DNA of 63,030 nucleotides, counting the filler. It is 4 parts of 4 records of this genome, joined end to end, with 100 filler letters (N's around TTAATTAATTAA, not from the genome) between each part and the next. Parts side by side here need not be neighbours in the genome. Positions count along the whole stretch, not along the records: positions 1 to 10,486 come from SRR31156797_11459; 3 more parts are not named here. The stretch is one strand, 5' to 3'. The position numbers and the translations under genes were made by a program. Below are positions 1-20,717 of this stretch, piece after piece (position 1 is the stretch's first letter; each line of letters starts with the position of its first letter). The notes under the pieces are model-generated. The model ran no database searches, was not told where the DNA came from, and saw nothing but the letters and a program-made list of their open reading frames with translations.

Positions 1-41
1 CGGTTTCCACCTAAGCCACTATATAAGTTCAGTATCTTCAT
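1..41 (-). CDS. 5' fragment of a probable DNA cytosine-5 methyltransferase (truncated by window edge)
   Basis: Not in the ORF track. ATG at 41, 2 nt after the stop of the upstream MTase, reads MKILNLYSGLGGN(R), matching SAM-binding motif I at the N-terminus of phage-type C5 MTases. Confidence 0.6.
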   Translation of the reverse strand, partial: MKILNLYSGLGGN

Positions 42-43
42 GA

Positions 44-1840
44 CTAGGCAGTTTTTCTGTTATTTGCTTGCTGTTTCTCCGTCCATTGGTCAGCCATTGC
101 ATCAGCAATCCCCTGAAAGGTTTTACTGCGCACCCTACGTCTTTCTTCATCGCTTAAATCCCTTGCCTGATAGTACCAAAGCGGTTGCCGTCTCCAACGT
201 TTTTTCTTCTTATCGTACCAATGTTTGTATTCCAATTGGTCTTCATCAAGCATATCGGTTGGTTCAAGTAGTGGTAGGTTCTTTAACCACAAGCAAGTTG
301 ATTTCTTTGCATTATCGCCAAAATAGTATGGCTGAATGATTTGGTCAGGCTTACGGATGGCGGTACTGATAACACCAATGGGGTTTTCAATGGCAATTTT
401 ATCAATGGGAGCTTTCATTAATTTGCGGATAAAAGCCAATGCTTTCTTACGTTCCTTTTGACGTTCCGGGTCGTGCATCCAAGCATTGCCTGAAACAGTC
501 AAGTAGGTGCATGGTGGAAATGCTATCATCATATCCCATCCTTTATCCAATTGGTTCAATACATCACCCTGTATATGCCATTCGGGATGTTTGCCTGTGG
601 TTGGAAGAATATCACAGCTATAGGCTTCATGCCCCTGACTGCGGAGTGCCATTGTGACGGTCTGGCTTTCTTCACAAGCAACCAAAATGCGTAGCGGTCG
701 GTTTGCCATTGGGAGTTTGCCAAGTGATAACTGTTTTTGCTTTATCAGGATGGCTTTAGCACGAAGCTTAATAATCTTTACATCTTTAGTTTGAGGTTTT
801 GGGCTTCTACTGTTGCCTAAACCAACCCTGTCCCAAAGTTCTTCATGGGTATTGACAACGGTGCTGTGCAGTTTATTTTTAAGCGGAGCTGCTCCACCGG
901 GAACTGCTTTTGCTCCATCAATCAGAATCAATCGGGTATTGATTGAAGTTCCTTGTCTGGAGTAAAGCTTTTTACCGTTAATCGGGATAATATCTTCAAC
1001 GTTGTAAAAGTGATAGAGGTAATTCAGGAAAATGCGGTTAGTTCCTGCCGTAACCCGACCGTGTTCGTCCCAAGTGGTATGACCACCAATGATGATAGCT
1101 GCCTTACCGTCATCCTTCATGCAACGCAAAGCGTTTAATGCCATTGCATGTTCCAATCGCTTGATTTTGAATTTTCCGAAAAGTTCAGGTTGAGAAAGTG
1201 AACCGAAAGGTGGATTCGTAACTATACCGTCAAAAGTTCTGTCATAAGCTGCCGGAGGTTTTAAAGCATCCCAAGAGCTGACCTTTGCAAAAGGTTGTTC
1301 TTTCAGGTTGGCAAGCCTTACATCGTCCAACTCGTTAACATGCGTATAGTGATAAGGTAAAGCAATGGTTAAAAGTCCGTTCCCTGCCGATGGTTCTAAA
1401 TACTTTGGAAAATCGTTTTTGTCATTGGTAAGATGGGCATTGCCGACAATTTTACCTTTGGTGCTGCCTTTAACGATATTTTTAAAAGCCTTGTAGCCTG
1501 TTAAACTACCTGATTTTAAAATGTAACTCGATGCCAAAAATGAAATGGGTGCCGGAGTGGAATATTGCTGCATCAACACACTCATGCTTGTTCGCATGGA
1601 AAGGTTGACCTGTGATTGATACAGGGCTACAATATCAAGGTATTTTTCGTAAGTGGTAAGCGAACTGTCATGTGCTACCTCTCTTGCATTAAGGATTATT
1701 GCCAGTTCGGTAAATTCTTTAACCAAGTTTTTGTTGGTAATGCCGAAGCTTTTGGCAATGCTTTCAATAGTGGTTTTAGAGTGCTTACGTCCACCTTTTA
1801 AATCCTCACGAATCCTTGATATGTAGCCCTTTTTATGCAT
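44..1840 (-). CDS. Fused DNA methyltransferase: N-terminal N6-adenine MTase + C-terminal phage-type C5-cytosine MTase
   Basis: N part: QQYSTP, LEPSAGNG (motif I), VTNPPFG (motif IV). C part from Met378 (ATG at 709): RILVACEESQ, GHEAYSCDI, IAFPPCTYL (catalytic PC), IENP, RSKTFQGIADAMADQW. Confidence 0.85.
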   Translation of the reverse strand: MHKKGYISRIREDLKGGRKHSKTTIESIAKSFGITNKNLVKEFTELAIILNAREVAHDSSLTTYEKYLDIVALYQSQVNLSMRTSMSVLMQQYSTPAPISFLASSYILKSGSLTGYKAFKNIVKGSTKGKIVGNAHLTNDKNDFPKYLEPSAGNGLLTIALPYHYTHVNELDDVRLANLKEQPFAKVSSWDALKPPAAYDRTFDGIVTNPPFGSLSQPELFGKFKIKRLEHAMALNALRCMKDDGKAAIIIGGHTTWDEHGRVTAGTNRIFLNYLYHFYNVEDIIPINGKKLYSRQGTSINTRLILIDGAKAVPGGAAPLKNKLHSTVVNTHEELWDRVGLGNSRSPKPQTKDVKIIKLRAKAILIKQKQLSLGKLPMANRPLRILVACEESQTVTMALRSQGHEAYSCDILPTTGKHPEWHIQGDVLNQLDKGWDMMIAFPPCTYLTVSGNAWMHDPERQKERKKALAFIRKLMKAPIDKIAIENPIGVISTAIRKPDQIIQPYYFGDNAKKSTCLWLKNLPLLEPTDMLDEDQLEYKHWYDKKKKRWRRQPLWYYQARDLSDEERRRVRSKTFQGIADAMADQWTEKQQANNRKTA

Positions 1841-1852
1841 GAAAAACCAGAA

Positions 1853-2353
1853 CTACATGATTGTGTGAGCCAAATAGAAAAGACCTACGAATATCTCTGC
1901 TGCCATTGTCAGCTCCAAACACCAAATTCGCTTATCGGCAAAACCTGTTGCAATTAAAGCCGAGATAGCAATGATAATGGTGTATTCGATATTATCGAAA
2001 CTGAAATAATAGCTTAATCCAAGGAGCATAAAACCACCAATTGCTGATACATAGTGAGCAATGCGGATAAACAGGTTTCGCTTAAAGTCGGAAAATATAC
2101 CGACTAAAAAGATTCCGATACCACCACCGATAACCCACCAATCGGCAGATTCTTTAATGAAAAGACCTGCTATGATGATGGCCAGTCCACAAACCCACAT
2201 CACAATCTCAAATACAAGCTTGTAGGGTTTGCGTAAAAAGTAATTACTATCAGAAATTGATTTGCGTATGCCATGAACCGCTATGATTGAGGTAAGATAA
2301 ACTACCAATGCTATAAATGCTGTAAAAAGGCTTGCTATTACTAATGCTTTCAT
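1853..2353 (-). CDS. Multi-pass membrane protein of unknown function
   Basis: 166 aa with about 5-6 hydrophobic segments; SISDSNY motif near the N-terminus. Confidence 0.7.
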   Translation of the reverse strand: MKALVIASLFTAFIALVVYLTSIIAVHGIRKSISDSNYFLRKPYKLVFEIVMWVCGLAIIIAGLFIKESADWWVIGGGIGIFLVGIFSDFKRNLFIRIAHYVSAIGGFMLLGLSYYFSFDNIEYTIIIAISALIATGFADKRIWCLELTMAAEIFVGLFYLAHTIM

Positions 2354-2355
2354 AA

Positions 2356-4857
2356 TTATTGAAGTGTAATGGTTTTGTCTGTTTCGTCTTTGAAAGTGAG
2401 CTTCAGGTTGTTCCCTGCAACATCTACTGAAAGGCTATCTACATCGGCATCCACGAAGTTTTTCATAAAGTTGATTTGGAAATTCAGTATCTCAGCCAGC
2501 TTTGCTTCCCAATCTTCTCCTGAGAATAAGCCTGAATCAGCATACACCTGTAAGAACTTCTTTAGGAAATCAGGAATATTCTGTAAGTTGACATCCCAAT
2601 CTGCTCCAACGGTGGCATTTTCTTCAATGCCCGAAAGCTTGTCTGCATCTGCCTGTGGGTAACTGCGTTTAGCATTATTGGCTTCAATAGCTGCTGCCTG
2701 TTCTACTGATATGGTTGTCGGTTTATTTTGAATATTGGTATTCCAATCTGCTCCAACAGTAGCTCCTTCTTCAATTCCTCCAAGCTTGGTTTCGTCCGCT
2801 TCGGGATAAGAGCGTTTTGCCGTGTTCGCTTCGATAGATGTAGATTGTTCCTCTGTTATGGTAGTAGGCTTATTCGCAATATTCGTCTCCCAGTCCGCCC
2901 CGGCTGAAGCGTTTTCTTCGATACCCGAAAGTTTATCCTGGTCAGCTTGTGGGTAGCTTCGTTTTTGGGCATTGGTTTCGATGGCTGCTGCCTGTTCTGC
3001 CGAGATGGTAACAGGTTTATTCTTAATATTGGTTTCCCAATCACCTCCAACAGTAGCCCCTTCTTCAATTCCTCCAAGTTTGGTTTCATCCGCTTCGGGA
3101 TATGAACGTTTTGCCATGTTCGCTTCAATAGCCGTAGCCTGTTCCTCTGAAATAGTGGTTGGCTTATTGGCAATATTTGTCTCCCAATCCGCACCAACAG
3201 TAGCGTTTTCTTCAATACCCGATAGCTTGTCTTCATCAACTTGAGGATAGCTACGTTTCTGCGTATTAGCTTCAATAGCCTCTGCTTGTTCAGGAGAAAT
3301 TGTAACTGGTTTGTTCTGTACGTTTTGTTCCCAATCAGCCCCAACAGTTGCATTTTCCTCAATGTCCGATAGTTTGTCTTCATCGGCTTGCGGATAACTT
3401 CGTTTTTCGGTATTTGCTTCAATAGCTTCTGCCTGTTCCTGAGAGATTGTTACGGGTTTGTTCTGCACATTGCTTTCCCAATCTGCTCCAACAGTAGCGT
3501 AAGCTTCAATCCCGGCAAGTTTATCTTCATCAGCTTGTGGATAGCTGCGTTTATTGTTATTGGATTCAATATCGGCTGCTTGTTGTGGGGAAATCGTTAC
3601 AGGTTTATTCTGCACATTTTGCTCCCAGTCAGCACCAACAGTTGCATTCGCCTCAATTCCAGAAAGCTTTTCTTCATCGGTTAGAGGATAGCTTCGTTTT
3701 TGGATATTCGCCTCAATTGCTTCTGCCTGTTCCTGGCTAATCGTTACAGGTTTGTTCTGTAAGTTGCTATTCCAATCAGCCCCAGCAGTTGCATTTTCTT
3801 CAATCCCTGCCAACTTCTCTGCATCAGCTTGCGGATAGCTACTTTTTTTGTTGTTGTTTTCAATGGCAGTAGCCTGTTCAGGAGAAATGGTGTTGGGTTT
3901 GTTTTCCAATTCCTCAAAATTGGAGGTCAGGTTCATATCATTCTCCAATTGAGATAGTTTTGTTGGAATGGCGATATTTAGATTACCATCAGGGTCGGTA
4001 ACAAAACCACCATGTACCTCAATACCCCCGTTAGGCATGTACACAGGACTTTTCTCTGATATGAGCAAATCTTCAACATTCCCGGCGATTATCAGACCTC
4101 CTGAAATTTGCTGAACAATGGTTTTTGGTCTAAAGTCCGGAGCTGATTTTGAACGAGCAATATTAATGAAAGAACCAACCGAAGCCCTATCCAGAATAGT
4201 GTCCTGAACATCACGGTTCATCTTGAAATAAGTATCAGAAAATACAATCTTGTTATAACCACGGTCAAACACACATGATTGATTGACTTTAGCCTCAAAA
4301 CAGCAATCATCTATGTTGGTCGTGCTGTTCAGAAATGCCAATGCACCACTTCCTTCATCGCTGAACTCAAACCGAATATCCCTAAAATTGATAGCACTAT
4401 TGTAAATCTCAATGGCCTTGTCACTCTGAAAAACAACAGGCTTCACGTAAGTACCGACTGTTCCATCTGCCTTATTGCTTAATGAACAGATGTTGATTTG
4501 ATAGGAAAAATCACGAAGTACCAGGAATGTTCCTAAATCGTTAATGAAAGTGCCATCCTCGAACATGATGCTGATACTTGCATTCTCGTTGGTGTGGTAT
4601 TTCAATGCCTTGGGCAATGAGTCAAATAAAAGCTGGAGCTTTGAAAACGGTGTTCCAGTTGGAATGATAATTGCCTTTTGGTCAAGGTCGTATTCAAATC
4701 CTGCAATCTGCTGGTCCTTACTCATATCAAACACGCCCTGAAATACCTTGTATTGTTCGTGTTCCATACCTAAATAGGCATACTGACCATCAGAAGCCCA
4801 TTCGCCCTTTTTTAGTAACGGTGGGGTTGTTCCCCTAAACATCTTGATTGTTCCCAT
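2356..4857 (-). CDS. Putative virion fibre/spike protein with beta-helix-like region and nine 49-aa repeats
   Basis: N-terminal FRGT..LLKKGEW cap typical of phage fibres; beta-rich I/F/N-periodic middle; IPTKLSQLEND and KLxGIEENA..ADW..NKP segments resembling phage fibre repeats. Confidence 0.65.
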   Translation of the reverse strand: MGTIKMFRGTTPPLLKKGEWASDGQYAYLGMEHEQYKVFQGVFDMSKDQQIAGFEYDLDQKAIIIPTGTPFSKLQLLFDSLPKALKYHTNENASISIMFEDGTFINDLGTFLVLRDFSYQINICSLSNKADGTVGTYVKPVVFQSDKAIEIYNSAINFRDIRFEFSDEGSGALAFLNSTTNIDDCCFEAKVNQSCVFDRGYNKIVFSDTYFKMNRDVQDTILDRASVGSFINIARSKSAPDFRPKTIVQQISGGLIIAGNVEDLLISEKSPVYMPNGGIEVHGGFVTDPDGNLNIAIPTKLSQLENDMNLTSNFEELENKPNTISPEQATAIENNNKKSSYPQADAEKLAGIEENATAGADWNSNLQNKPVTISQEQAEAIEANIQKRSYPLTDEEKLSGIEANATVGADWEQNVQNKPVTISPQQAADIESNNNKRSYPQADEDKLAGIEAYATVGADWESNVQNKPVTISQEQAEAIEANTEKRSYPQADEDKLSDIEENATVGADWEQNVQNKPVTISPEQAEAIEANTQKRSYPQVDEDKLSGIEENATVGADWETNIANKPTTISEEQATAIEANMAKRSYPEADETKLGGIEEGATVGGDWETNIKNKPVTISAEQAAAIETNAQKRSYPQADQDKLSGIEENASAGADWETNIANKPTTITEEQSTSIEANTAKRSYPEADETKLGGIEEGATVGADWNTNIQNKPTTISVEQAAAIEANNAKRSYPQADADKLSGIEENATVGADWDVNLQNIPDFLKKFLQVYADSGLFSGEDWEAKLAEILNFQINFMKNFVDADVDSLSVDVAGNNLKLTFKDETDKTITLQ
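2581..3903 (-). repeat. Nine tandem 147-bp (49-aa) coding repeats
   Basis: Unit consensus NKPVTISxEQAxAIEANxxKRSYPQADEDKLSGIEENATVGADWExNxQ; 9 x 147 = 1323 bp fits 2581-3903 exactly. Confidence 0.95.
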
Positions 4858-4878
4858 ATTATGAAGTCTTTTAAATTT

Positions 4879-5490
4879 CTAAATCATTAAATAAGCCCTG
4901 TCGAACAGTTCATTACTGACGTAATTGCCACCATTCTCAACCTTGGCTATTGAAAGCACCAAAAGCCGAAGCGTATTCTTAGTTGGTAGTAGCTTCGCTG
5001 TTTTACTCACCTTTAAATCCTTGCAAACTGTATTGATGTATGCTGCCGTATTGTTCTCAAACTTGGGCGCATATTCCTCGATAAGAGCCGGAACTGTGTT
5101 CTTGCCTTTCTCAATGTCATGCTTGAGGTCTTTAATCATAGCACGAACTCCAAATACAGGAGCTTTAAACATTTCAAAACGTCTGTCTTTGTTCTGCTCT
5201 TTGGGCAGTTTACCATTCCATTTGATGTTGGTGTAAATCAGGTTTCCCGGATTGTTGTTGCGGATGCCCCTAGGTGCATTGGATAGATAAGTATTGCCAC
5301 CATTCCAATTTTGAAAATCCGAAGGCAACTCATTGTTGTTCGTAGTTAAGATGTTTGAACCACGATGGGGCAATAGCCCTTGCTGTTTTTTCTTATTGCG
5401 TCTGCGAATAAGTAAAACGGTGGTAACTATCGCCCCTGTGGTTACTAACCCTCCCGAAATAAATAATATCTTCTTTTGTTTCTTGTCCAT
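4879..5490 (-). CDS. Membrane-anchored lysozyme-like virion protein (RNNNPGN family)
   Basis: N-terminal hydrophobic anchor + RRRNKKK, then PRGIRNNNPGNL ... FGVRAM ... EYAPKFENNTAAY ... KVENG. Confidence 0.75.
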   Translation of the reverse strand: MDKKQKKILFISGGLVTTGAIVTTVLLIRRRNKKKQQGLLPHRGSNILTTNNNELPSDFQNWNGGNTYLSNAPRGIRNNNPGNLIYTNIKWNGKLPKEQNKDRRFEMFKAPVFGVRAMIKDLKHDIEKGKNTVPALIEEYAPKFENNTAAYINTVCKDLKVSKTAKLLPTKNTLRLLVLSIAKVENGGNYVSNELFDRAYLMI

Positions 5491-5505
5491 AGCTGTAATC
5501 GTGTT

Positions 5506-5982
5506 TTAGAGAGGGATTCCCCAACTGTCGAACTTGGGTTTTATTTTGGCAATCTCTTTATCGCTTAACTCAAAGCGCAGCCAACCAATCAAATTGTAGT
5601 CCTGACCAAGAAATGCAGCACGAGTTCCCCATAAGTACATCTTCATACCGAAAGCTTTTATCACCAGAAGCATATCATCTTTGGTCTGTAGCTTATCTAT
5701 TGTGCTGTAAATCGTTTTTTCGTCTGTGCCGAAATCAAGCATTGCACCGTACAATGTATTAGCATACAAGGCAGCATCAGACGGAGAAATGGTCAAATTT
5801 TCCTTTTGGAGAACCATATCGCTCAATGCAGGAGCAACCCTTGATGAAGTGCCATCAGGATTGCGCTTGAACAATAGTTTTTTAACGGCATAAATACCTA
5901 TACCTACGCCTAAGATGGGTAAGCCGTATTTAATTCCATTAGCGACTAATGTTGCCTTATTTACTGATGGTAACTTTTGCAC
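5506..5982 (-). CDS. Membrane-anchored protein with an annexin-like repeat
   Basis: TM segment YGLPILGVGIGIYAV + KK, then DAALYANTLYGAMLDFGTDEKTIY ... NLIGWLRFELS, matching annexin consensus DA..L..AM.G.GTDE..I ... L...L..ELS. Confidence 0.7.
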   Translation of the reverse strand: MQKLPSVNKATLVANGIKYGLPILGVGIGIYAVKKLLFKRNPDGTSSRVAPALSDMVLQKENLTISPSDAALYANTLYGAMLDFGTDEKTIYSTIDKLQTKDDMLLVIKAFGMKMYLWGTRAAFLGQDYNLIGWLRFELSDKEIAKIKPKFDSWGIPL

Positions 5983-5994
5983 GGTACTTGAATT

Positions 5995-6171
5995 TTAGAT
6001 GTATCTCAATGCGGTCTTTACAATCTTTGGATTCTTGGCTACTTTGGAGAGCAGCTTTATAATATCCTCCTGTTCAACCTTGTTTACCGCATTTTGTATC
6101 AGGTTTCCAACTTGCTGAACTGTTTCAGGTGTTTCTGCTTCAATGGTAATTCCTACTTTAAACTTTCTCAT
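5995..6171 (-). CDS. Small 58-aa protein missed by the ORF track
   Basis: ATG at 6171, TAA at 5995-5997; MRKFKVGITIEAETPETVQQVGNLIQNAVNKVEQEDIIKLLSKVAKNPKIVKTALRYI; fills the gap between two co-oriented genes. Confidence 0.75.
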   Translation of the reverse strand: MRKFKVGITIEAETPETVQQVGNLIQNAVNKVEQEDIIKLLSKVAKNPKIVKTALRYI

Positions 6172-6182
6172 AATCGTATGTT

Positions 6183-7298
6183 TTAATCGTTATCTAAATC
6201 TTGATTGTCTAAATCAGTATTACCCGGTTCTTCAATGCCGTTCATAGCTTGATTCAGGAACATGAGGGTTTTATTGATGAGTTCTGCTTTATCCAAGCAT
6301 AATCCAACAATGTTGGCAATCTTGGCTACGTCTTGCAGCTCCCATGTAATAAGTGCATCAGAAAGGTTCTTGATAATCTCAGCTTTCTTCTTGTCTTCTG
6401 GAGAACTTGGAGCACCCATGTCGGTAATCTCAACATTGGTTTCTGGTATGTGAGTGGCTTCTTCAGAATTGTCTTCAATCATTCCTAAAGCACCTTTCAA
6501 CTCATCTGCTGTAAGTCCTAATAACTCTGCTGTTTTCGGACTATTGGTAAGTATGCGTGAACCGATGCCTACCAATGCACCTGTGGCTACTCGCTTCATT
6601 ACTTCATTGGGAGCATACCCGGCAAGACGATTTTCAAGGTCTGTTTTCTCTGATTTTAATTCCCTGTTTTCACTTTGGTAGCGGTCTTTCTCAGCTCGTA
6701 GTTCCGCATTTTCGTTGCGTAGTCGCTCAAACTTCTCTTCCAAAGTATTGTAGCGTGTCTCGAACTTAAAATCATCCAACTGCTTTTGGTAGCTGATTCG
6801 TTCAACCTCTTTGTTATTGCCAGATAAGGCATTGAACACGCCAAACAAACCTTCCAATTTGTTTTTTGCCTGTTCGTTTTCACCTGAGAACAATCCCAAT
6901 AGCGTATCCAATTCTCCTAAACCATTGGTATTATTCTGAATCTGCTGCTGTTTAACTTCTTGTTGAATAATAGTTTGAAGTTCTGCTCTCTCAATAGGTT
7001 CTTTTGGTGGATTGAGAAGTTTGCTCACATTGATGGTATAGCTGTTCAGGCTTCTTGCATTGGGACTTTTACCTCCAAACACATCAACTCTAAGTGTACC
7101 ATGTGATTGTTTTGCTTTCTCAATAGCACTTTCAATATCACGGTTGAACTTTTCAGTTCCGGCAGTTCTCGAAGTGAGTGCCGTCTCATCAACTCCTGTT
7201 ACCAAGTATATTTCGTATGCGTAAGGGTACTTTTGTTCATCCTCAGAACGCTTTATAAACTCGTATATGCTTTGTATTTGCTCTCTGTAATCTAGCAT
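6183..7298 (-). CDS. Coiled-coil hypothetical protein
   Basis: 371 aa; central heptad region LEEKFERLRNENAELRAEKDRYQSENRELKSEKTDLENRL; Gly-rich hydrophobic stretch VATGALVGIG. Confidence 0.7.
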   Translation of the reverse strand: MLDYREQIQSIYEFIKRSEDEQKYPYAYEIYLVTGVDETALTSRTAGTEKFNRDIESAIEKAKQSHGTLRVDVFGGKSPNARSLNSYTINVSKLLNPPKEPIERAELQTIIQQEVKQQQIQNNTNGLGELDTLLGLFSGENEQAKNKLEGLFGVFNALSGNNKEVERISYQKQLDDFKFETRYNTLEEKFERLRNENAELRAEKDRYQSENRELKSEKTDLENRLAGYAPNEVMKRVATGALVGIGSRILTNSPKTAELLGLTADELKGALGMIEDNSEEATHIPETNVEITDMGAPSSPEDKKKAEIIKNLSDALITWELQDVAKIANIVGLCLDKAELINKTLMFLNQAMNGIEEPGNTDLDNQDLDND

Positions 7299-7305
7299 GG
7301 CTGTA

Positions 7306-7656
7306 TTAATTTCGGTGGGGAATAATTTTCACAAACTCCAATCGGTAAGGCTTGAAGCTTTCCGCTTGGGTAAGGATGTCTATGTAATCGGTGAATACCT
7401 GGTAGCGGTACTCATCCATAAATTCGTATTCTTCAGGCGTGGCGGTAAACACGTTATCGCTACTAATCATTTCCAATTCATCAATGGAACCGGGAAGACC
7501 TTTGGTATTCAGAATCCACATGTCGTTTTTCAGGTCCAGGGACATATCAGGACTTGTAACTCGAATCACAGTCGGTTTCAACTGGTAACTGTCAATGGTT
7601 CGTAGCCCTGCAATGCGGTCTTTGGCGATGGTATGTAATAACTCACTCGTGTTCAT
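7306..7656 (-). CDS. Small beta-rich hypothetical protein (possible minor structural protein)
   Basis: 116 aa, overlaps the upstream gene by 14 nt; alternating hydrophobic strands ending YRLEFVKIIP. Confidence 0.65.
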   Translation of the reverse strand: MNTSELLHTIAKDRIAGLRTIDSYQLKPTVIRVTSPDMSLDLKNDMWILNTKGLPGSIDELEMISSDNVFTATPEEYEFMDEYRYQVFTDYIDILTQAESFKPYRLEFVKIIPHRN

Positions 7657-8479
7657 TGGTTACTTCCTCCGAATTAATGTTCGACAATTGCAGTTCTTTT
7701 TTTGATGGAGCTTCGTACTCGATGTAAATCCTGATGGTCAGGATATTTTCCTCGCTGTTCTTGTTGCTCTTGAATACTGTGTAGATGTTGCTGTTAACCT
7801 CCAAAGGCTCATGGAAAGGGATAATCTCTTTGCTGAGATACTTGATGTTTCTGTTTGCAGTAACCATGTAGTCACGAAGCAAGAAGCTATTGCCATTTAC
7901 TAAAAGACTAATATTGCCACACTCGTATGGTTCCGGCTGCTTGTATGCCTTGATGGTTCTTTTGAACAGTTCATCCTTGTGCTGATAGGTAAACACCAAT
8001 GTTTGTTGGGAGATAAAATCAGAGAACTCAAGGTTGGTCATTCCCTGACCTCTAACAAACAGATTGGATTCGTCATAAACGAAATCAACGAACTGCTCAT
8101 TGAATACATGAGCAATATGGTCGCTCAATTCCTGTTGCTCATCTTTATCCAGGCAGGAATAAACGATACCATTGGTCAGTACCCTGATAATTTCAGGCAA
8201 AATGTCGCTTTCAAAGAATGTACGACTATCATGCTCATCTGCTCGTGTGCGTAAATAGGAGTAGAACAAGTCCGTAATCTGCTCATCGTTTAAAAGGTCA
8301 GTAATCAATTCTTGTGGGAAAGCAAGGCTCTCCACTACATCAATCAACTCTGTTTGCTTTTTAACGGTGGCGATAACAGCAAGACCAGTTATCAACTTGC
8401 AGGAAGCAGGGAGCAAATCTTGTGCGTTGATGTGGCTATTGTCCTCGGACTTATGCGTAATAACAAAATATCGTTTCAT
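7643..8479 (-). CDS. Hypothetical protein; beta-sandwich similar to the 8498-8884 protein with a ~150-aa helical insertion
   Basis: 278 aa; N- and C-terminal strands align by eye to the neighbouring 128-aa protein. Confidence 0.6.
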   Translation of the reverse strand: MKRYFVITHKSEDNSHINAQDLLPASCKLITGLAVIATVKKQTELIDVVESLAFPQELITDLLNDEQITDLFYSYLRTRADEHDSRTFFESDILPEIIRVLTNGIVYSCLDKDEQQELSDHIAHVFNEQFVDFVYDESNLFVRGQGMTNLEFSDFISQQTLVFTYQHKDELFKRTIKAYKQPEPYECGNISLLVNGNSFLLRDYMVTANRNIKYLSKEIIPFHEPLEVNSNIYTVFKSNKNSEENILTIRIYIEYEAPSKKELQLSNINSEEVTNEHE

Positions 8480-8497
8480 ATCGGGAGTATTGGGGGA

Positions 8498-8884
8498 TTA
8501 TGAATTATCTACTTCTGCAAGCAGATACACACGCACATGGTAACTATCATTGACAGCCAGGTTTTCACTATCATCCTTATAGATGATTCTGATAGGGCTG
8601 TTCTTGGCTTTTTCATTCACAGGGAAAGTCACGTCTTTGATACTCATATCATCATTGTGATGAAGAAGAGCTACCTCGGTATCATCGGGGATGATTTCAG
8701 TATCATCAATCCACGCTCGAAGTGTTGAACCCGGTAGGGCTTGTTGATTGGACAAGCGAAGGAACATACCCGTAATGCGGTCGTGTTCTGTTTTGGTATT
8801 GCCGTTAAACTCAAAGGTTTCTCCTTTTTTTACCTCGAATTTTACAACCTGTAGTTTCTTTATTTTGTTGTCTTGTACTTCCAT
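8498..8884 (-). CDS. Small all-beta protein, candidate penton/minor capsid (single jelly-roll-like)
   Basis: 128 aa of successive amphipathic strands (QVVKFEV, RITGMFLRL, TLRAWID, IRIIYKD, YHVRVYLLAE); directly downstream of the candidate capsid gene. Confidence 0.5.
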   Translation of the reverse strand: MEVQDNKIKKLQVVKFEVKKGETFEFNGNTKTEHDRITGMFLRLSNQQALPGSTLRAWIDDTEIIPDDTEVALLHHNDDMSIKDVTFPVNEKAKNSPIRIIYKDDSENLAVNDSYHVRVYLLAEVDNS

Positions 8885-8901
8885 TGGTATAAGTGATTAA
8901 G

Positions 8902-8938
8902 AAAAAAGGGACGGAAGCAAGTATTGCGACCGCCCCTT
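8902..8938 (-). terminator. Intrinsic terminator after the candidate capsid gene
   Basis: Minus-strand RNA GGGGCGG-UC-GCAA-UAC-UUGC-UU-CCGUCCC-UUUUUU; the G.U pair and U-tail work only on the minus strand. Confidence 0.7.
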
Positions 8939-8964
8939 CTAACGATTATGGCATACCCAAAAAA

Positions 8965-9810
8965 CTATGCTTTCTCTGTGATTGTACCCAATAGCGTAAT
9001 CTTAACAGCCGGGTTAAAAACCTTGTCGCTGTTGTTGATAGCCTTTGGCATGTTCAGCTTTGGCGTGATGTCCATTGATGGCTTTAACCACTTTGGATTC
9101 GCCAATTTGTACTGGAACTTACGCTTGGTTGTATCGGTATCATCGAATACCGCACAAGAGATTTCAGGAAGAATCACCTTAGTTCCCAAGGTCATCTCAA
9201 ATGTTCCGTTTAGGATTTGTGCAGGAAGCGCAAACTGACCGAATGCAAAATCTGCCGGGTCGTTATCTTCTTCTGATGCACCATGAGCGTACTCAAGAAC
9301 AATGTCAGTCAGCAAGAAATACTTTCCTGAATCCAACTGCGCACGGTTCAGGTTGGTGCGACCAGCCTTCTTATCATCCGATGCTTCCATCAAATCAATA
9401 TCGGATTTGTCCTTAACCGACTTAATGGTATAAATTGCCGTATCAACGGTTTGCATACGTGCATCTTTCAATGCCTTTTGAATCTCTGCCGGAAGCTGCT
9501 GTCTGCGTAATTCAAACTGACCTTTTGAAGTCAATTGAGTTGTCAAACCTGTTTTTACAGCGGTACTTCTGCGGCCTGCATTGTACGACCTTCGAACAGC
9601 ACGTTTGCGGTAACTACGTCTGCGACCTCTACGGCTTCTGCGTCTTCTTCTTCGTCTCGAACGTCCGAGTTCACCGATGCCTTCCGTGGCATCATCCTGG
9701 TCATCTTCTTTGTCCAGGGAATCCTCTTCCTTATCGAGAATCGCTTCTTCTAAACCTTCTATATCTTCCATTGAAGGGTACAAATCATTTTGCTCATTAA
9801 TCTCTGCCAT
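8965..9810 (-). CDS. Candidate major capsid protein (acidic leader, Arg-rich arm, single jelly-roll-like beta domain)
   Basis: aa1-44 very acidic; aa50-81 contain 19 Arg; C-terminal ~165 aa beta-rich with TNL..QL...YFLLTDIVLEY, ILNGTFEM, YKLANPKWL, VKITLLG. Confidence 0.55.
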   Translation of the reverse strand: MAEINEQNDLYPSMEDIEGLEEAILDKEEDSLDKEDDQDDATEGIGELGRSRRRRRRRSRRGRRRSYRKRAVRRSYNAGRRSTAVKTGLTTQLTSKGQFELRRQQLPAEIQKALKDARMQTVDTAIYTIKSVKDKSDIDLMEASDDKKAGRTNLNRAQLDSGKYFLLTDIVLEYAHGASEEDNDPADFAFGQFALPAQILNGTFEMTLGTKVILPEISCAVFDDTDTTKRKFQYKLANPKWLKPSMDITPKLNMPKAINNSDKVFNPAVKITLLGTITEKA

Positions 9811-9876
9811 GATAATTTGTTTTTGTGGCTCAATAGCCTGTTATAAAATTGAATTGATTATTTAGTTGTGGATGAA

Positions 9877-10473
9877 TCAGGATGCCATCATATCACCCGA
9901 AAAGATGTCATAGTCCATGCTGTCGGGGTCGATGTCTTTAATCTTACCGATTTGAGGTTCTTCATCCTCCGGATAGTCGGCTTTGCCGATAGGTTCATCG
10001 CTCATTGCATAATCGGCTGCTGAACTTCCCACAGGGTCGTCACTCATGGAGTAATCTTCTGCTGCACCTGAAACAGAAGCTTCTATTTCACGCTCGATGT
10101 CAATATCCGCTGCTGGCAAAGCTTGTGTGATTGGGTTCAGGGCTTGTAAACCATCAACTTCATCGTAGTCCTCGTCTCCTATGATGCCCTCTAATCCTTG
10201 TAGGATGGTTTTACCTGTGGCTTTTTTGATAATGGATTCTACACCAGCTCCTGCTGCTCCAACAAGCCCAAGCTTGATGTATTCATTTTTGGTAAATTGA
10301 GTACCTACCAAACTACCCATTGTAACCGCTGCCGGAACGATGTAGCTTTTCATGTCGTTGCCTAAAAGACCACTTACTGCCTGGCTTTTCTCTAACTTCT
10401 TTAAAGCGTACTTTCCAACTGCAAACCCTGCTACGGCAGCAATGGGCTTGCCAATGTTGTTGGTGGCTTTCAT
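9877..10473 (-). CDS. Membrane-associated protein with acidic repetitive tail
   Basis: Three Gly/Ala-rich hydrophobic helices, then an acidic tail with DYSMSDDPVG/DYAMSDEPIG/DYPEDEEPQIG. Confidence 0.65.
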   Translation of the reverse strand: MKATNNIGKPIAAVAGFAVGKYALKKLEKSQAVSGLLGNDMKSYIVPAAVTMGSLVGTQFTKNEYIKLGLVGAAGAGVESIIKKATGKTILQGLEGIIGDEDYDEVDGLQALNPITQALPAADIDIEREIEASVSGAAEDYSMSDDPVGSSAADYAMSDEPIGKADYPEDEEPQIGKIKDIDPDSMDYDIFSGDMMAS

Positions 10474-10486
10474 AAAGTCAATTTTT

Positions 10487-10586
10487 NNNNNNNNNNNNNN
10501 NNNNNNNNNNNNNNNNNNNNNNNNNNNNNNTTAATTAATTAANNNNNNNNNNNNNNNNNNNNNNNNNNNNNNNNNNNNNNNNNNNN
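10487..10586. other. Artificial contig spacer
   Basis: 44 N + TTAATTAATTAA (stops in all six frames) + 44 N. Confidence 0.98.
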
Positions 10587-10731
10587 TGAAGAGCCCGTCG
10601 GCTTGAGACAAATTTATTAAAGGTTTATATAAATAAATTTAATTGAAATCTTATTAGAAAGCTTCCTGTATGTGAATTATTAAAGATTTATAACAATTAT
10701 GATTGATACTTGAAAATAAAGAAATCTATAA

Positions 10732-12315
10732 ATGATAACATTCGTTTTAAATAATCAGATCATACAAACAGACAAAGCAGAAGGAACGGCTTTGTTGGAC
10801 TTTATTCGGGACGATTCTTCGCTACCGGGAACCAAAATTGGTTGTCGTGAGGGTGATTGTGGTGCATGTACCGTATTGGAAGGTCGATTGATTGAGGGAA
10901 AGGTCGTGTACAAAAGCATTGTTTCATGTCTTACACCTTTGCGCAATGCACAGGGTAAACACATTGTAACGCTTGAAGGAATCAATATGAAGCATTTGTC
11001 GCCCGTGCAAAAAGCCATGGTTGATAATGCCGCTACGCAATGTGGGTTTTGTACTCCCGGATTTGTGATGTCTTTCACGGGTCAGGCCATGTCCAAAAAT
11101 ATTTCATCGAAAGAGTTGGCTATTGATGCTGTAAGTGGAAATATTTGTCGTTGTACAGGCTACAAATCCATTGAGAGAGCCGCCCAAGCTATTGCCGGAA
11201 CATTTGCCAATAAAAATTTGGAAAATCCCATAGAATGGATGGTGGAGCAACAGTATTTACCAGATTACTTCCTTGAAATACCTAAGCGATTAGAGAAAAT
11301 TTCGAATGAGTTTCTAAAAAAAGGTTCAAATCAGAATTCACAAGAGTCGGATAAGAAATCATCATTTTCAAGGCTTGCGAAGTCAGGAAAACCGCAGTTT
11401 GCTGATGTAAATGAGGATTTTGCTGACAAGCGAAACGAAGAACCGTTAGCTCGCGAACACAAATTAAAATTTGATAAAAGTGAGCAAAATGGTGATTTAT
11501 TGACGACGATAATTATGGGAGGGGGGACTGATCTAATGGTGCAAAAACACGATGAAATTGCGGAATCGTCACTCAATAGCTTTTATCTGAAAAAAGATTT
11601 GCAATACATTAAAAATGAGGAAGGCAAAATATGCATTGGAGCTGCTTCAACTGCTAATGATATTGCTAATAACAATCTTATACAGGAGTTGATTCCTGAC
11701 ATTAAAGCGTTCTTTAAACTGGTCTCTTCAGAGCCAATTCGAAATACAGGAACAGTTGCCGGAAATGTGGTAAATGCATCGCCTATTGGTGATTTAACTA
11801 TTATGTTGTTGGCTATGAATGCTGATGTGGTGCTCAACGCAGAAGGGAAGAAGCGTAGTATGCCACTGAAATCATTTTTCCTCGATTATAAAAAGATCGA
11901 TTTGAAACCGGGAGAATACATTGAGCAGTTCGATATTCAGTTACCCCAAAATACGTATCGATTTAACTACGAGAAAATTAGCAAACGTATCCATCTGGAT
12001 ATTGCAAGTGTAACTACGGCAATGTCTTGTGAAATGAATGGAAATACAATAGTAAGTTGCCATGTGTCAGCAGGTGGTGTAAAAGCCATTCCACTATATT
12101 TGGAAGTCACATCACGCTTTTTAGAAGGCAAAGAGCTAACTGCTGAAATAGTATTGCAGGCAGCTGAAATTATACAAAGTGAAATTTCGCCCATCAGCGA
12201 TGTCCGTGGAACCGATGAATACAAGCGTCAGTTACTCAGACAGCTGTTTATTGCCCATTGCGTAAAATTGTTCCCTGAGTCGGTTTCGGCAAAGGAATTA
12301 CTAGCGGCTCAGTAA
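10732..12315 (+). CDS. xdhA: Xanthine dehydrogenase small subunit (2x[2Fe-2S] + FAD)
   Basis: GTKIGCREGDCGAC, QCGFCTPG, GNICRCTGY, GGGTDL, IRNTGTVAGN, ISDVRGTDEYK. Confidence 0.92.
   Translation: MITFVLNNQIIQTDKAEGTALLDFIRDDSSLPGTKIGCREGDCGACTVLEGRLIEGKVVYKSIVSCLTPLRNAQGKHIVTLEGINMKHLSPVQKAMVDNAATQCGFCTPGFVMSFTGQAMSKNISSKELAIDAVSGNICRCTGYKSIERAAQAIAGTFANKNLENPIEWMVEQQYLPDYFLEIPKRLEKISNEFLKKGSNQNSQESDKKSSFSRLAKSGKPQFADVNEDFADKRNEEPLAREHKLKFDKSEQNGDLLTTIIMGGGTDLMVQKHDEIAESSLNSFYLKKDLQYIKNEEGKICIGAASTANDIANNNLIQELIPDIKAFFKLVSSEPIRNTGTVAGNVVNASPIGDLTIMLLAMNADVVLNAEGKKRSMPLKSFFLDYKKIDLKPGEYIEQFDIQLPQNTYRFNYEKISKRIHLDIASVTTAMSCEMNGNTIVSCHVSAGGVKAIPLYLEVTSRFLEGKELTAEIVLQAAEIIQSEISPISDVRGTDEYKRQLLRQLFIAHCVKLFPESVSAKELLAAQ
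11346..11507. repeat. 162-bp palindromic (MITE/RPE-like) element inserted in frame in xdhA
   Basis: Imperfect terminal IRs gtcggataagaaatcatcatttt / aaaatggtgatttattgacgac; internal IR gtcaggaaaaccgca...tgaggattttgctgac; length is 54 codons. Confidence 0.65.
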
Positions 12316-20083: not shown

Positions 20084-20389
20084 ATGCATAAGCTAATAAA
20101 AGAAAATATCGATAAAATTGAGCAGTTGTGTCGCACACACAATGTGAAAACCTTGTTTGTTTTTGGATCCATATGTACGGATGAATTCAAAGAAACAAGT
20201 GATGTCGATTTTTTAATCTCAATTGATACTGATGATTTTGGTGAGTATGCGGATACGTATTTTAATATTGCTCATGAATTAGAAAATATTCTTCAACGAC
20301 CGGTAGATTTGGTTACAGATAAATCTCTTTCAAATCCTTATTTTATTCAATCTCTAAATCAAACAAAAACACTGATTTATGCAGCTTGA
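20084..20389 (+). CDS. MNT nucleotidyltransferase antitoxin (MntA-like)
   Basis: GS-X10-DXD motif (FGSICTDEFKETSDVD), RPVDLV; overlaps the HEPN gene. Confidence 0.88.
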   Translation: MHKLIKENIDKIEQLCRTHNVKTLFVFGSICTDEFKETSDVDFLISIDTDDFGEYADTYFNIAHELENILQRPVDLVTDKSLSNPYFIQSLNQTKTLIYAA

Positions 20390-20717
20390 TATTAAAAAGT
20401 ACCTTTATGATATTAATGAGAGCATTCTTTCAATTGAAAACTTTTTGAAAGGAAATAAAGATTTTACATCATACGAATCAAATAAAATGTTGAGAAGAGC
20501 TGTTGAAAGAGAGTTTGAGATCATTGGTGAGGCGATGAATAGAATTAATAAACTAGATGATTCTATCTCTATTTCAAGCAAGATGTACATTATCGGTATG
20601 CGAAATCGTGTTATCCATGCTTATGATAAAATTGACAATGCCATCATTTGGGGTACAATTATTCGACACCTTCCAAAACTGAAGTTAGAGATTGAGCAGT
20701 TGCTTGATGAGGATTAA
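20379..20717 (+). CDS. HEPN/DUF86 RNase toxin (HepT-like)
   Basis: AVEREFEIIGEA; RX4HXY motif RNRVIHAY. Confidence 0.88.
   Translation: MQLDIKKYLYDINESILSIENFLKGNKDFTSYESNKMLRRAVEREFEIIGEAMNRINKLDDSISISSKMYIIGMRNRVIHAYDKIDNAIIWGTIIRHLPKLKLEIEQLLDED

Follow-up and report, generated by a model that had tools for sequence, protein, structure and literature searches.

An anchored single-repeat annexin encoded beside a peptidoglycan hydrolase in a Marinilabiliaceae provirus, and its possible part in crossing the cell envelope

Annexins are generally regarded as Ca2+-dependent membrane binders of eukaryotes, with a few outliers in bacteria whose role is unknown; what, then, could a virus of bacteria do with one? 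The question is raised by a gene located at positions 5506-5982, on the minus strand, of the window analysed here (a stretch of 63,030 nucleotides in which separate contigs are joined), where a first-pass annotation made from the sequence had proposed an annexin-like repeat in a membrane-anchored protein of a virus-like module. The open reading frame (ORF) lies exactly where this annotation had placed it, the peptide that it quoted being residues 69-140 of the translation, and the computed layout of the 158-residue product consists of an N-terminal hydrophobic anchor, a linker of ~20 residues and a single annexin repeat (residues ~58-156). The evidence presented below establishes that this repeat is homologous to annexins; as to function, we tentatively propose that the protein could quite possibly be a virion-associated, Ca2+-switched membrane binder working with the hydrolase encoded next to it at cell entry. 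Conservation was counted on an alignment of 136 diverse family members (hereafter A1), also used as a profile, and the features on which the argument rests are the following:

5506-5982, minus strand: gene of the annexin-repeat protein, from the ORF list (GTG start, 158 residues).
5872-5928, minus strand: N-terminal hydrophobic anchor, residues ~19-37, which in the 158-residue protein is rich in Gly and of low hydrophobicity (AlphaFold2 (AF2) helix 22-37; Kyte-Doolittle window).
5515-5811, minus strand: annexin repeat, residues ~58-156, helices A-E (A1 profile against the PDB; VIA alignment; fold search).
5719-5742, minus strand: AB loop M81-L-D-F-G-T-D-E88, counterpart of the annexin type II Ca2+ loop (translation; conservation in A1).
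5593-5646, minus strand: family-specific insertion between helices C and D, residues ~113-130 (AF2 β hairpin, strands 114-116 and 127-129).
5569-5571, minus strand: E138, within E-L-S, counterpart of the acid that caps the Ca2+ site (translation; conservation in A1).

Is the repeat a genuine annexin repeat? When the 158-residue sequence is scanned alone, Pfam gives no match to the annexin family PF00191 even at E ≤ 1, so that the hidden Markov model (HMM) check suggested in the first-pass annotation is negative at this level, and scans with PHROGs and NCBIfam give no match either; a single-sequence phmmer search of the PDB finds 19 weak matches, 17 of which are annexins (best E 0.022), all spanning helix A, the loop and helix B. 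At the level of the family the outcome is positive: PF00191 is matched individually by 44 of the 136 relatives at E ≤ 0.01 (best 1.1e-8), and the A1 profile has 74 matches in the PDB at E ≤ 0.01, all 60 of the matches listed being annexins or annexin A2 fusions, the best reaching 9e-30 on the eight-repeat annexin VI (best single stretch 9.5e-4). P0090, the protein of Marinilabilia salmonicolor that is 76% identical to the query and carries the UniRef name “Annexin”, scores 15.3 bits against PF00191, the cut-off being 25; the annexin call itself is thus not new, a close homologue having been presented as a bacterial annexin as early as 2014.

The size of the family became apparent in an exhaustive search of 1.84 billion representatives, which returned 532 clusters (counted at 50% identity) at E ≤ 0.001 and 65 at ≤ 1e-10, most of the 532 consisting of proteins of ~150 residues with the same layout as the 158-residue protein; to call annexins rare in bacteria, as the first-pass annotation did, is therefore an understatement for this family. 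In the same library the 158-residue query directly matches four long proteins (E 3e-24 to 3.4e-8) that are themselves multi-repeat PF00191 annexins with 3-9 repeats (E 1.8e-51, 4.9e-41, 1e-23 and 2.5e-64). Close homologues number 214 at E ≤ 0.01 among 240 candidates, with an identity of 70-97% among the matches listed (120 of the 214). Of 35 related loci (L001-L035), 22 passed a simple filter on motif and length; against these the ratio of non-synonymous to synonymous substitution rates (dN/dS) is 0.073 in the median and 0.134 at most, and in the four close pairs free of saturation it lies between 0.013 and 0.045; judged by these ratios, the gene is under strong purifying selection.

The predicted fold leads to the same identification. 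The AF2 model built on A1 (mean predicted local distance difference test (pLDDT) 82.8, and 95-98 across most of the annexin domain) consists of five helices and a small hairpin. A Foldseek search of the PDB with this model gives no match at E ≤ 0.001 (best E 0.041); the matches listed are solely annexins and PDZ-annexin A2 fusions, with probabilities of 0.93-1.00 (best 1.00), and VIA-align superimposes these candidates with Z scores up to 10.4 and a root-mean-square deviation (rmsd) of 2.0-3.0 Å over 75-83 residues within model residues 58-156. A search independent of Foldseek, through 48,161 representative chains, places annexin folds in all of the top 11 positions (Z 9.9-6.0), the first unrelated chain following at Z 5.5; these eleven are annexin VI, annexin A8, domain 1 of annexin I, cotton and schistosome annexins, three giardins, the annexin-like domain of astrotactin-2 and two annexin A2 fusions, and domain 1 of annexin I aligns over all 73 of its 73 residues with an rmsd of 2.0 Å. 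The five-helix annexin fold that the first-pass annotation expected of a structure prediction is accordingly what the model displays. Taken together, the family profile and the fold establish the homology of the repeat to annexins, and the repeat recognised in the first-pass annotation is genuine. In the model the protein has a single repeat, residues ~58-156 of 158, and not the four-repeat annexin core.

Does the repeat retain what an annexin requires to bind Ca2+? The type II Ca2+ site of annexins is built from backbone carbonyls of the M-K-G-x-G-T loop and from an acidic side chain located ~38 residues downstream. In A1, whose mean column identity is 16%, ten positions are conserved to at least 90%, and these near-invariant positions include the Met, the second Gly, the Thr and the capping acid, i.e., those of the type II site. 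Indeed, M81 is found in 129 of the 136 relatives, G85 in 133, T86 in 129, D87 in 117 and E88 in 105, whereby the conservation of the G-T-D-E loop, on which the annotation had made its proposal depend, is borne out; likewise, the downstream Glu to which it had assigned the capping function corresponds to a position (138) that is acidic in 135 of the 136 (128 Glu, 7 Asp). The tip of the loop (position 84) is mostly Phe, Tyr, Val, Ile or Trp across the alignment. On this pattern of conservation, binding of Ca2+ and of lipids by the repeat would be likely.

The transmembrane (TM) anchor of the first-pass annotation stands in part. A hydrophobic segment precedes the repeat throughout the family, with a Kyte-Doolittle window of at least 1.6 in 133 of the 136 relatives, but it is weak in the present protein, whose best 15-residue window reaches 1.70 (family median 2.43) and whose AF2 anchor helix (residues 22-37) has a low pLDDT. 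By these hydropathy and model values, the anchor is real for the family and weak in the 158-residue copy.

What kind of element carries the gene? Five features of the first contig of the window are relevant here:

1-10486, no strand assigned: provirus fragment, one contig (blastn collinearity with the ~45-kb proviruses G001 and G002).
8965-9810, minus strand: 281-residue protein with an acidic N-terminus, a poly-Arg arm and an all-β C-terminal domain (AF2; PDB; BFVD).
5995-6171, minus strand: conserved 58-residue ORF directly upstream of the annexin gene (ORF list), not hydrophobic, found upstream in 37 of 37 related loci (L001-L037).
4879-5490, minus strand: 203-residue anchored homologue of peptidoglycan hydrolases, directly downstream of the annexin gene (phrog_873, E 5.9e-34; PDB matches).
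2356-4857, minus strand: 833-residue fibre- or spike-like protein with about ten tandem 49-residue repeats, conserved downstream of the lytic gene.

By blastn the contig is collinear with 35 loci in genomes of Marinilabiliaceae type and in one metagenome-assembled genome of Flavobacteriales, and with two IMG/VR records, G001 and G002 (45.0 and 45.8 kb), that IMG/VR classes as proviruses and that CheckV rates as 98% and 100% complete. In the blastn comparison with 30+ loci similarity always ends at 10485/6, because an artificial linker starts at 10487: positions 10487-10586 are N runs around TTAATTAATTAA, a six-frame stop-codon linker joining separate contigs. Position 10486 was also considered as a biological boundary of the element beside xanthine dehydrogenase genes, an interpretation that is ruled out by the artificial linker; since the window joins separate contigs, the genes beyond the linker (xanthine dehydrogenase) are not shown to be neighbours of the annexin contig. 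The second contig carries, at 20084-20717 (plus strand), adjacent genes for a nucleotidyltransferase (Polbeta/NTP_transf_2) and a HepT-like RNase, likely an MNT/HepT toxin-antitoxin module.

Genomes often contain 2-4 diverged copies of the provirus, with 68-99% protein identity (loci L003-L037), and in draft assemblies the region is often found on contigs of 0.6-4 kb, a fragmentation that a repeated element would be expected to show. The order of the genes is constant: they encode in succession proteins of ~220, 281, ~128, 278 and 116 residues, a coiled-coil protein of ~370 residues, the 58-residue protein, the annexin, the anchored hydrolase and the 833-residue repeat protein. Where the available sequence leaves room, the hydrolase gene is directly downstream of the annexin gene in 31 of 33 related loci and the 281-residue gene is upstream in 29 of 29. 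One of the two loci without the hydrolase gene in this position is L035, a broken or rearranged copy of the provirus in which the annexin gene (10001-10273) ends after codon 91, with neither hydrolase nor fibre gene behind it. The virus-like module of the first-pass annotation is thus substantiated by the collinearity with complete proviruses and by the fixed order of the block. Antisense to the 58-residue gene, at 5999-6118 (plus strand), is a 39-residue ORF with a lipobox-like I-S-S-C, probably by chance.

In addition to the block, G001 encodes an excisionase-like helix-turn-helix protein, a DnaG-type primase and a tyrosine integrase, DNA methylases, a Strawberry-notch-like helicase, a protein with the LPD1 polyvalent-protein domain, Abi and other accessory genes, and, at a distance of ~20 kb from the annexin gene, an endolysin with GH108 and PG_binding_3 domains that is preceded by a weak holin match. 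Its only small ATPase (210 residues) matches phrog_6891 “ATPase” and RadA at E 4.4e-5, and no packaging ATPase of FtsK/HerA type was recognised in this record; an 836-residue protein gives weak transglutaminase-like leads below 0.9 in the structure atlas and a weak PDB match to RuvB. A tblastn search of 50,697 phage records returned no match for the annexin protein or for the 836-residue protein.

The lytic enzyme gene that the first-pass annotation saw next to the annexin gene is confirmed by the phrog_873 match listed above. Further PHROG matches of the 203-residue protein are to families bearing the labels tape measure, head protein and tail injection transglycosylase; its PDB matches are the N-terminus of a 1295-residue phage protein (9vvp, “Gp29”, E 4.6e-12) and a 170-residue “Endolysin” (7q47, E 3.8e-11). 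Averaged over 30 distinct homologues, 6.1 Lys/Arg residues follow the anchor on its catalytic (C-terminal) side and 3.6 precede it on the N-terminal side, and such a surplus of positive charge on the catalytic side would be odd for an endolysin exported in the producing cell.

At the other end of the block, the 281-residue protein has an Arg-rich run of about 20 residues and an AF2 model with a pLDDT of 72 overall and ~80 in the β domain. Only three PDB chains reach Z ≥ 8 with this domain, and all are capsid jelly rolls, from PBCV-1 (8.8), EhV-201 (8.2) and SPV1, i.e., Sulfolobus polyhedral virus 1 (8.1); these best-matching capsid proteins come from membrane-containing viruses. A BFVD search with the model gives 124 matches at E ≤ 1e-3, with many capsid proteins among the named best 50, while the structure atlas returns only unnamed clusters. 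As modelled, the domain would have the capsid-type jelly-roll fold, with middling scores, and we would hypothesize a virus having a jelly-roll capsid, possibly with an internal membrane.

The 833-residue protein is probably a fibre or a spike: its repeats, at about 2571-3905, appear in blastn as a self-similar ladder with 147-nt steps and differ in number and sequence between related loci, and the protein has a weak Beta_helix match (E 0.33). Downstream of this gene (44-1840, minus strand; L002:13708-20160; L039:204-2060) genes of the polyvalent-protein type are found, comprising phrog_757/phrog_14770 matches, a C5 DNA methylase, a 1315-residue Strawberry-notch-like helicase and an LPD1 protein, an unusual cargo for a 45-kb provirus.

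Is the association of annexin repeats with viruses peculiar to this lineage? A scan of IMG/VR with a degenerate DNA pattern for A-M-x-G-x-G-T-D-E found the loop in 99 stretches; in 58 of these the family HMM is matched at E ≤ 1e-3 by at least one ORF, giving 61 ORFs of which 45 are distinct, and in 26 of the 45 distinct ORFs a hydrophobic segment is present within 90 residues upstream of the loop. For the single distant family members P0127, P0150 and P0171 no viral loci were found. The BFVD contains a 154-residue viral protein that matches over its full length and an 801-residue protein of an uncultured tailed phage (E ~2e-4). Locus L116 encodes an 871-residue protein in which four TM segments are combined with an annexin repeat matching AnxA4 at E 5.3e-10, and which also has a weak tape-measure match (E 1.7e-7); in L088 the annexin gene abuts a tail sheath gene; and in L111 two annexin repeats are joined to a peptidoglycan-binding domain. 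The PHROG labels had suggested an annexin-endolysin fusion for L111, a candidate that was set aside after a PDB search showed the matched part to be at least partly a peptidoglycan-binding domain.

Five independent viral records (G003-G007) were examined more widely. G007 (locus L139) is a complete genome of 13,164 bp with direct terminal repeats and 22 ORFs, encoding a primase/helicase-like protein, an anchored annexin and, four to five genes downstream of the latter, a phrog_873 enzyme and an M23-type peptidase, both anchored; no capsid, terminase or tail gene is recognisable in this record. G004 has a match to lytic tail or internal-virion endolysin-like proteins 3 kb downstream of the annexin gene, and in G006 (L117) an endolysin-like gene follows the annexin gene directly, while in G003 the annexin gene has no annotated neighbours. 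The distance between annexin and hydrolase genes is 0-5 genes in G004, G006 and G007. G005 (L142), a 56-kb viral contig with a weak terminase match, contains four tandem annexin genes at 9463-11265 (134-166 residues each), which recall the idea of single repeats working in pairs or fours. In all five records the annexin genes lie among small ORFs with TM segments predicted by a crude predictor, and the annotated neighbours of viral annexin genes point to the envelope.

How could the protein operate? The first-pass annotation had seen in it a virion protein binding or remodelling membranes with the aid of Ca2+ during assembly or entry, a reading that is supported in part: the anchored repeat, the conserved loop and cap and the lytic neighbour hold, and a place in the virion, Ca2+ and lipid binding and the moment of action are putative. 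In the entry function proposed at the outset, the AB loop, with its Met, Gly-Thr-Asp-Glu and hydrophobic tip, would together with the distant capping Glu bind Ca2+ and thereby acidic phospholipid head groups, as in annexins. The gene would be part of the particle-building block of a temperate Marinilabiliaceae virus, and its product would be carried in the particle together with the adjacent anchored hydrolase. At infection the wall would be breached by the hydrolase, and the repeat, charged with the Ca2+ that is abundant in seawater and periplasm, would attach the delivery structure (an internal membrane, or else proteins that are ejected) to the membrane of the host; while particles are still being made, the cytoplasm would offer too little Ca2+ for the repeat to be active. 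Seawater and periplasm contain millimolar Ca2+ and the bacterial cytoplasm far less, a difference that would naturally keep the repeat off in the cell that makes the virus and turn it on at the following host.

Several elements favour entry over exit. The complete provirus G001 has a holin/endolysin pair of its own, for which reason the hydrolase encoded beside the annexin is probably not the exit enzyme; furthermore, the genes of the annexin-hydrolase pair are flanked, within the block, by capsid-like and fibre-like ones, large virion proteins contain the hydrolase domain as well, and annexin repeats are found elsewhere in tape-measure-like and tail-adjacent proteins.

On the other hand, a number of observations weigh against an entry function. 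The loop is not entirely that of the first-pass annotation, which had read it as A-M-x-G-x-G-T-D-E: the Met, the second Gly, the Thr and the cap are kept, but the first Gly of G-x-G-T is Asp in the 158-residue protein (position 83) and Gly in just 39 of the 136 relatives, and the spacing from T86 to the cap is 51 residues instead of 38, with a range of 39-59 across the family. The longer spacing is due to the insertion between helices C and D, the shortest members of A1 being without it and having a near-canonical spacing; the Asp and the inserted hairpin could nevertheless alter the Ca2+ site. Lys and Arg residues around the annexin anchor lean slightly towards the C-terminal side (mean 3.29 versus 2.46 on the N side; C>N in 76, equal in 35 and C<N in 22 of 133 relatives), a bias by which the repeat would lean mildly towards the cytoplasmic face in the producing cell. 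The PHROG tape-measure matches of the hydrolase homologue are weak (E 1e-5 to 2e-7) and the same domain also constitutes a soluble endolysin (7q47); in G005 a holin match lies 4 kb from the annexin genes, and most neighbours of annexin genes in other viral contigs are without annotation. Finally, PHROG and Pfam recognised, among the G001 ORFs scanned, no terminase, portal, capsid or tail family, although divergent versions could escape them, and Terminase_6N was found in neither G001 nor G002.

This last result also speaks for an alternative in which the protein serves assembly rather than entry. The virus would be tailless and membrane-containing, with a jelly-roll capsid; the anchor would be inserted in the internal membrane and the repeat, facing the capsid, would recruit or shape the host-derived membrane or tie it to the capsid. 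Such a virus is suggested by the capsid-type jelly-roll fold predicted for the 281-residue neighbour, by the lack of any terminase, portal, HK97-type capsid or tail family in the 45-kb provirus scans and by G007, complete at 13.2 kb without hallmarks of tailed phages, and the occurrence of annexin genes within runs of small ORFs with predicted TM segments in the five independent records is consistent with it. The charge bias, moreover, puts both repeat and hydrolase on the cytoplasmic face, which would become the outer face of an internal virion membrane. Against it, the jelly-roll match is middling (Z 8.1-8.8) and tailed phages also have jelly rolls, the small ATPase of G001 resembles RadA and no known packaging ATPase, the weak terminase match of G005 as well as L088 and L116 point to tailed phages, and the TM predictor is crude. 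Since cytoplasmic Ca2+ is low, a Ca2+-dependent step inside the cell also fits poorly, and we regard an assembly function as doubtful.

A function at exit appears unlikely to a similar extent. Annexin and hydrolase would here form a lysis cassette, the latter with an anchor of the signal-anchor-release type and the former with a periplasmic repeat that binds the inner leaflet of the outer membrane, causing spanin-like fusion or disruption or acting, like a holin or antiholin, on timing. An N-terminal anchor followed by a soluble domain of ~100 residues, encoded beside a hydrolase, does resemble i-spanins and one-TM holins, and the hydrolase anchor is rich in Gly, Thr and Ala as are signal-anchor-release domains; the endolysin-like gene that directly follows the annexin gene in L117/G006 belongs to the same picture, and the association of annexin repeats with a peptidoglycan-binding domain in L111 places such repeats in the envelope. 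An exit function keeps its share of probability because the hydrolase domain is a soluble endolysin in the solved structure 7q47 and a holin match lies near the annexin genes of G005. Against it stand the separate holin-like and GH108 endolysin pair located ~20 kb away in the related complete provirus, the position of the annexin-hydrolase pair inside a structural block that extends from capsid-like to fibre-like genes, and the charge bias, which does not favour a periplasmic C-terminus. Nor is there an o-spanin candidate: a simple regular-expression search found no lipobox ORF on the same strand within 4700-6300, in or beside the two genes, its only match being on the opposite strand, and with an annexin repeat as soluble domain the pair departs from the plan of a two-component spanin, in which the inner-membrane subunit has a periplasmic coiled coil and an outer-membrane lipoprotein gene is adjacent or embedded.

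Very improbable, in our opinion, is a function in the lysogen, in which the protein, made by the provirus and inserted in the host membrane, would block the entry of competing phage DNA or reseal damaged membrane upon a Ca2+ leak. Small one-TM prophage proteins often act in superinfection exclusion, the presence of 2-4 related proviruses per genome implies real competition, and a cytoplasm-facing repeat, as the charge bias would have it, could sense Ca2+ influx; according to review abstracts, eukaryotic annexins act in Ca2+-triggered membrane repair. The gene, however, is co-oriented with the structural block and in the middle of it, away from integrase, repressor and accessory genes, its position is kept (with the capsid-like gene upstream in every one of the 29 loci), and hydrolase and tail-related neighbours in unrelated viral contigs fit this function poorly. 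Least probable of all is that the fold was kept and the activity lost, the repeat being a protein-protein or wall-binding module that binds neither Ca2+ nor lipid: a shared fold is no proof of a shared function, the canonical first Gly of the loop is lost in 97 of the 136 relatives and the 10-20-residue insertion changes the distance from loop to cap, but the Ca2+-site positions are among the near-invariant ones despite the low overall identity of the family, and the loop tip is kept hydrophobic or aromatic.

If the repeat does act at entry, what are the implications? Anchored single-repeat annexins are a large family; proviruses and viral contigs encode members of it, which adjoin modules that bind or cut the wall or are fused to them, and bacterial annexins would thereby gain a first concrete and testable job, namely the handling of membranes while a virus crosses the cell envelope; the family furthermore offers a minimal, one-repeat annexin for biophysics. 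Attention is also drawn to the ~45-kb provirus group, common and multi-copy in Marinilabiliaceae, whose particles may be membrane-containing. A far-reaching and rather improbable extension would be that these proviruses represent a lineage of temperate viruses of marine Bacteroidota, not found in the literature searched, with a jelly-roll capsid around an internal membrane, in which the Ca2+ difference between cytoplasm and seawater would act on the annexin repeat as a switch dependent on location, the repeat fastening or fusing, with the anchored hydrolase, the viral to the host membrane at entry; more broadly, bacterial viruses would be a large annexin reservoir, missed by the 2014 survey cited below, that could have moved the domain between bacterial phyla and perhaps towards eukaryotes.

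How does the system compare with known ones? PRD1-type phages have a jelly-roll capsid protein and encode small anchored DNA-delivery proteins beside the virion transglycosylase P7 and the spike genes. The likeness is one of gene setting, with a putative jelly-roll capsid protein here and an internal membrane that is hypothetical. Spanins and one-TM holins share with the present protein the N-terminal anchor and the soluble domain of ~100 residues encoded beside a hydrolase gene, but here this domain is an annexin repeat and not a coiled coil, and the complete provirus has a separate holin/endolysin pair. With eukaryotic annexins (PF00191; A5, A4, A6 and giardins) the protein has in common the five-helix fold of the repeat (Z up to 10.4), the helix A-loop-helix B signature, the F-G motif after helix C and the E-L-S/T cap; in contrast to their four-repeat core, it has one repeat and an N-terminal anchor and is encoded by a virus of bacteria, and its family is mostly without the first loop Gly and has an insertion, the C-D hairpin.

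Closer to it are the bacterial annexins of Kodavali et al. 2014 (PMC3894181), the relevant passages of which count Marinilabilia salmonicolor as one of 17 bacteria with annexins, mention TM regions for some of the proteins, report that viruses yielded no annexin and add that neighbouring genes offered no clue that applied generally. From P0090 we infer that the M. salmonicolor entry of these passages is of the short anchored type. The bacterial annexins described there, which include the M. salmonicolor protein and the single-domain annexin of Cytophaga hutchinsonii, resemble the present ones in having a single or few repeats, in belonging to Bacteroidota and, in some cases, in having TM regions; the present family differs from them in being found in proviruses and viral contigs beside wall hydrolases and in being much larger, with its 532 clusters at 50% identity. 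The full-text literature searched, in which subscription journals are thinly covered, yielded no paper devoted to phage or provirus annexins, and what appears to be new relative to it is that the family occurs in viruses, that it is linked to wall-degrading modules and that it is so large.

The last comparison is with the polymorphic toxins of phage-tail-like systems of the PVC type, in which, according to the passages of Zhang et al. 2012 (PMC3482391) devoted to them, single annexin domains occur and are proposed to help breach target membranes. As would be the case in the viruses considered here, a lone annexin repeat is tied to a machine that has to get through the envelope of a target cell. 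In the toxins, as described in those passages, the repeat is internal to large soluble proteins and is always followed by an enzymatic toxin domain, whereas the viral repeats are either free-standing and anchored, or joined to wall-binding or tape-measure-like proteins.

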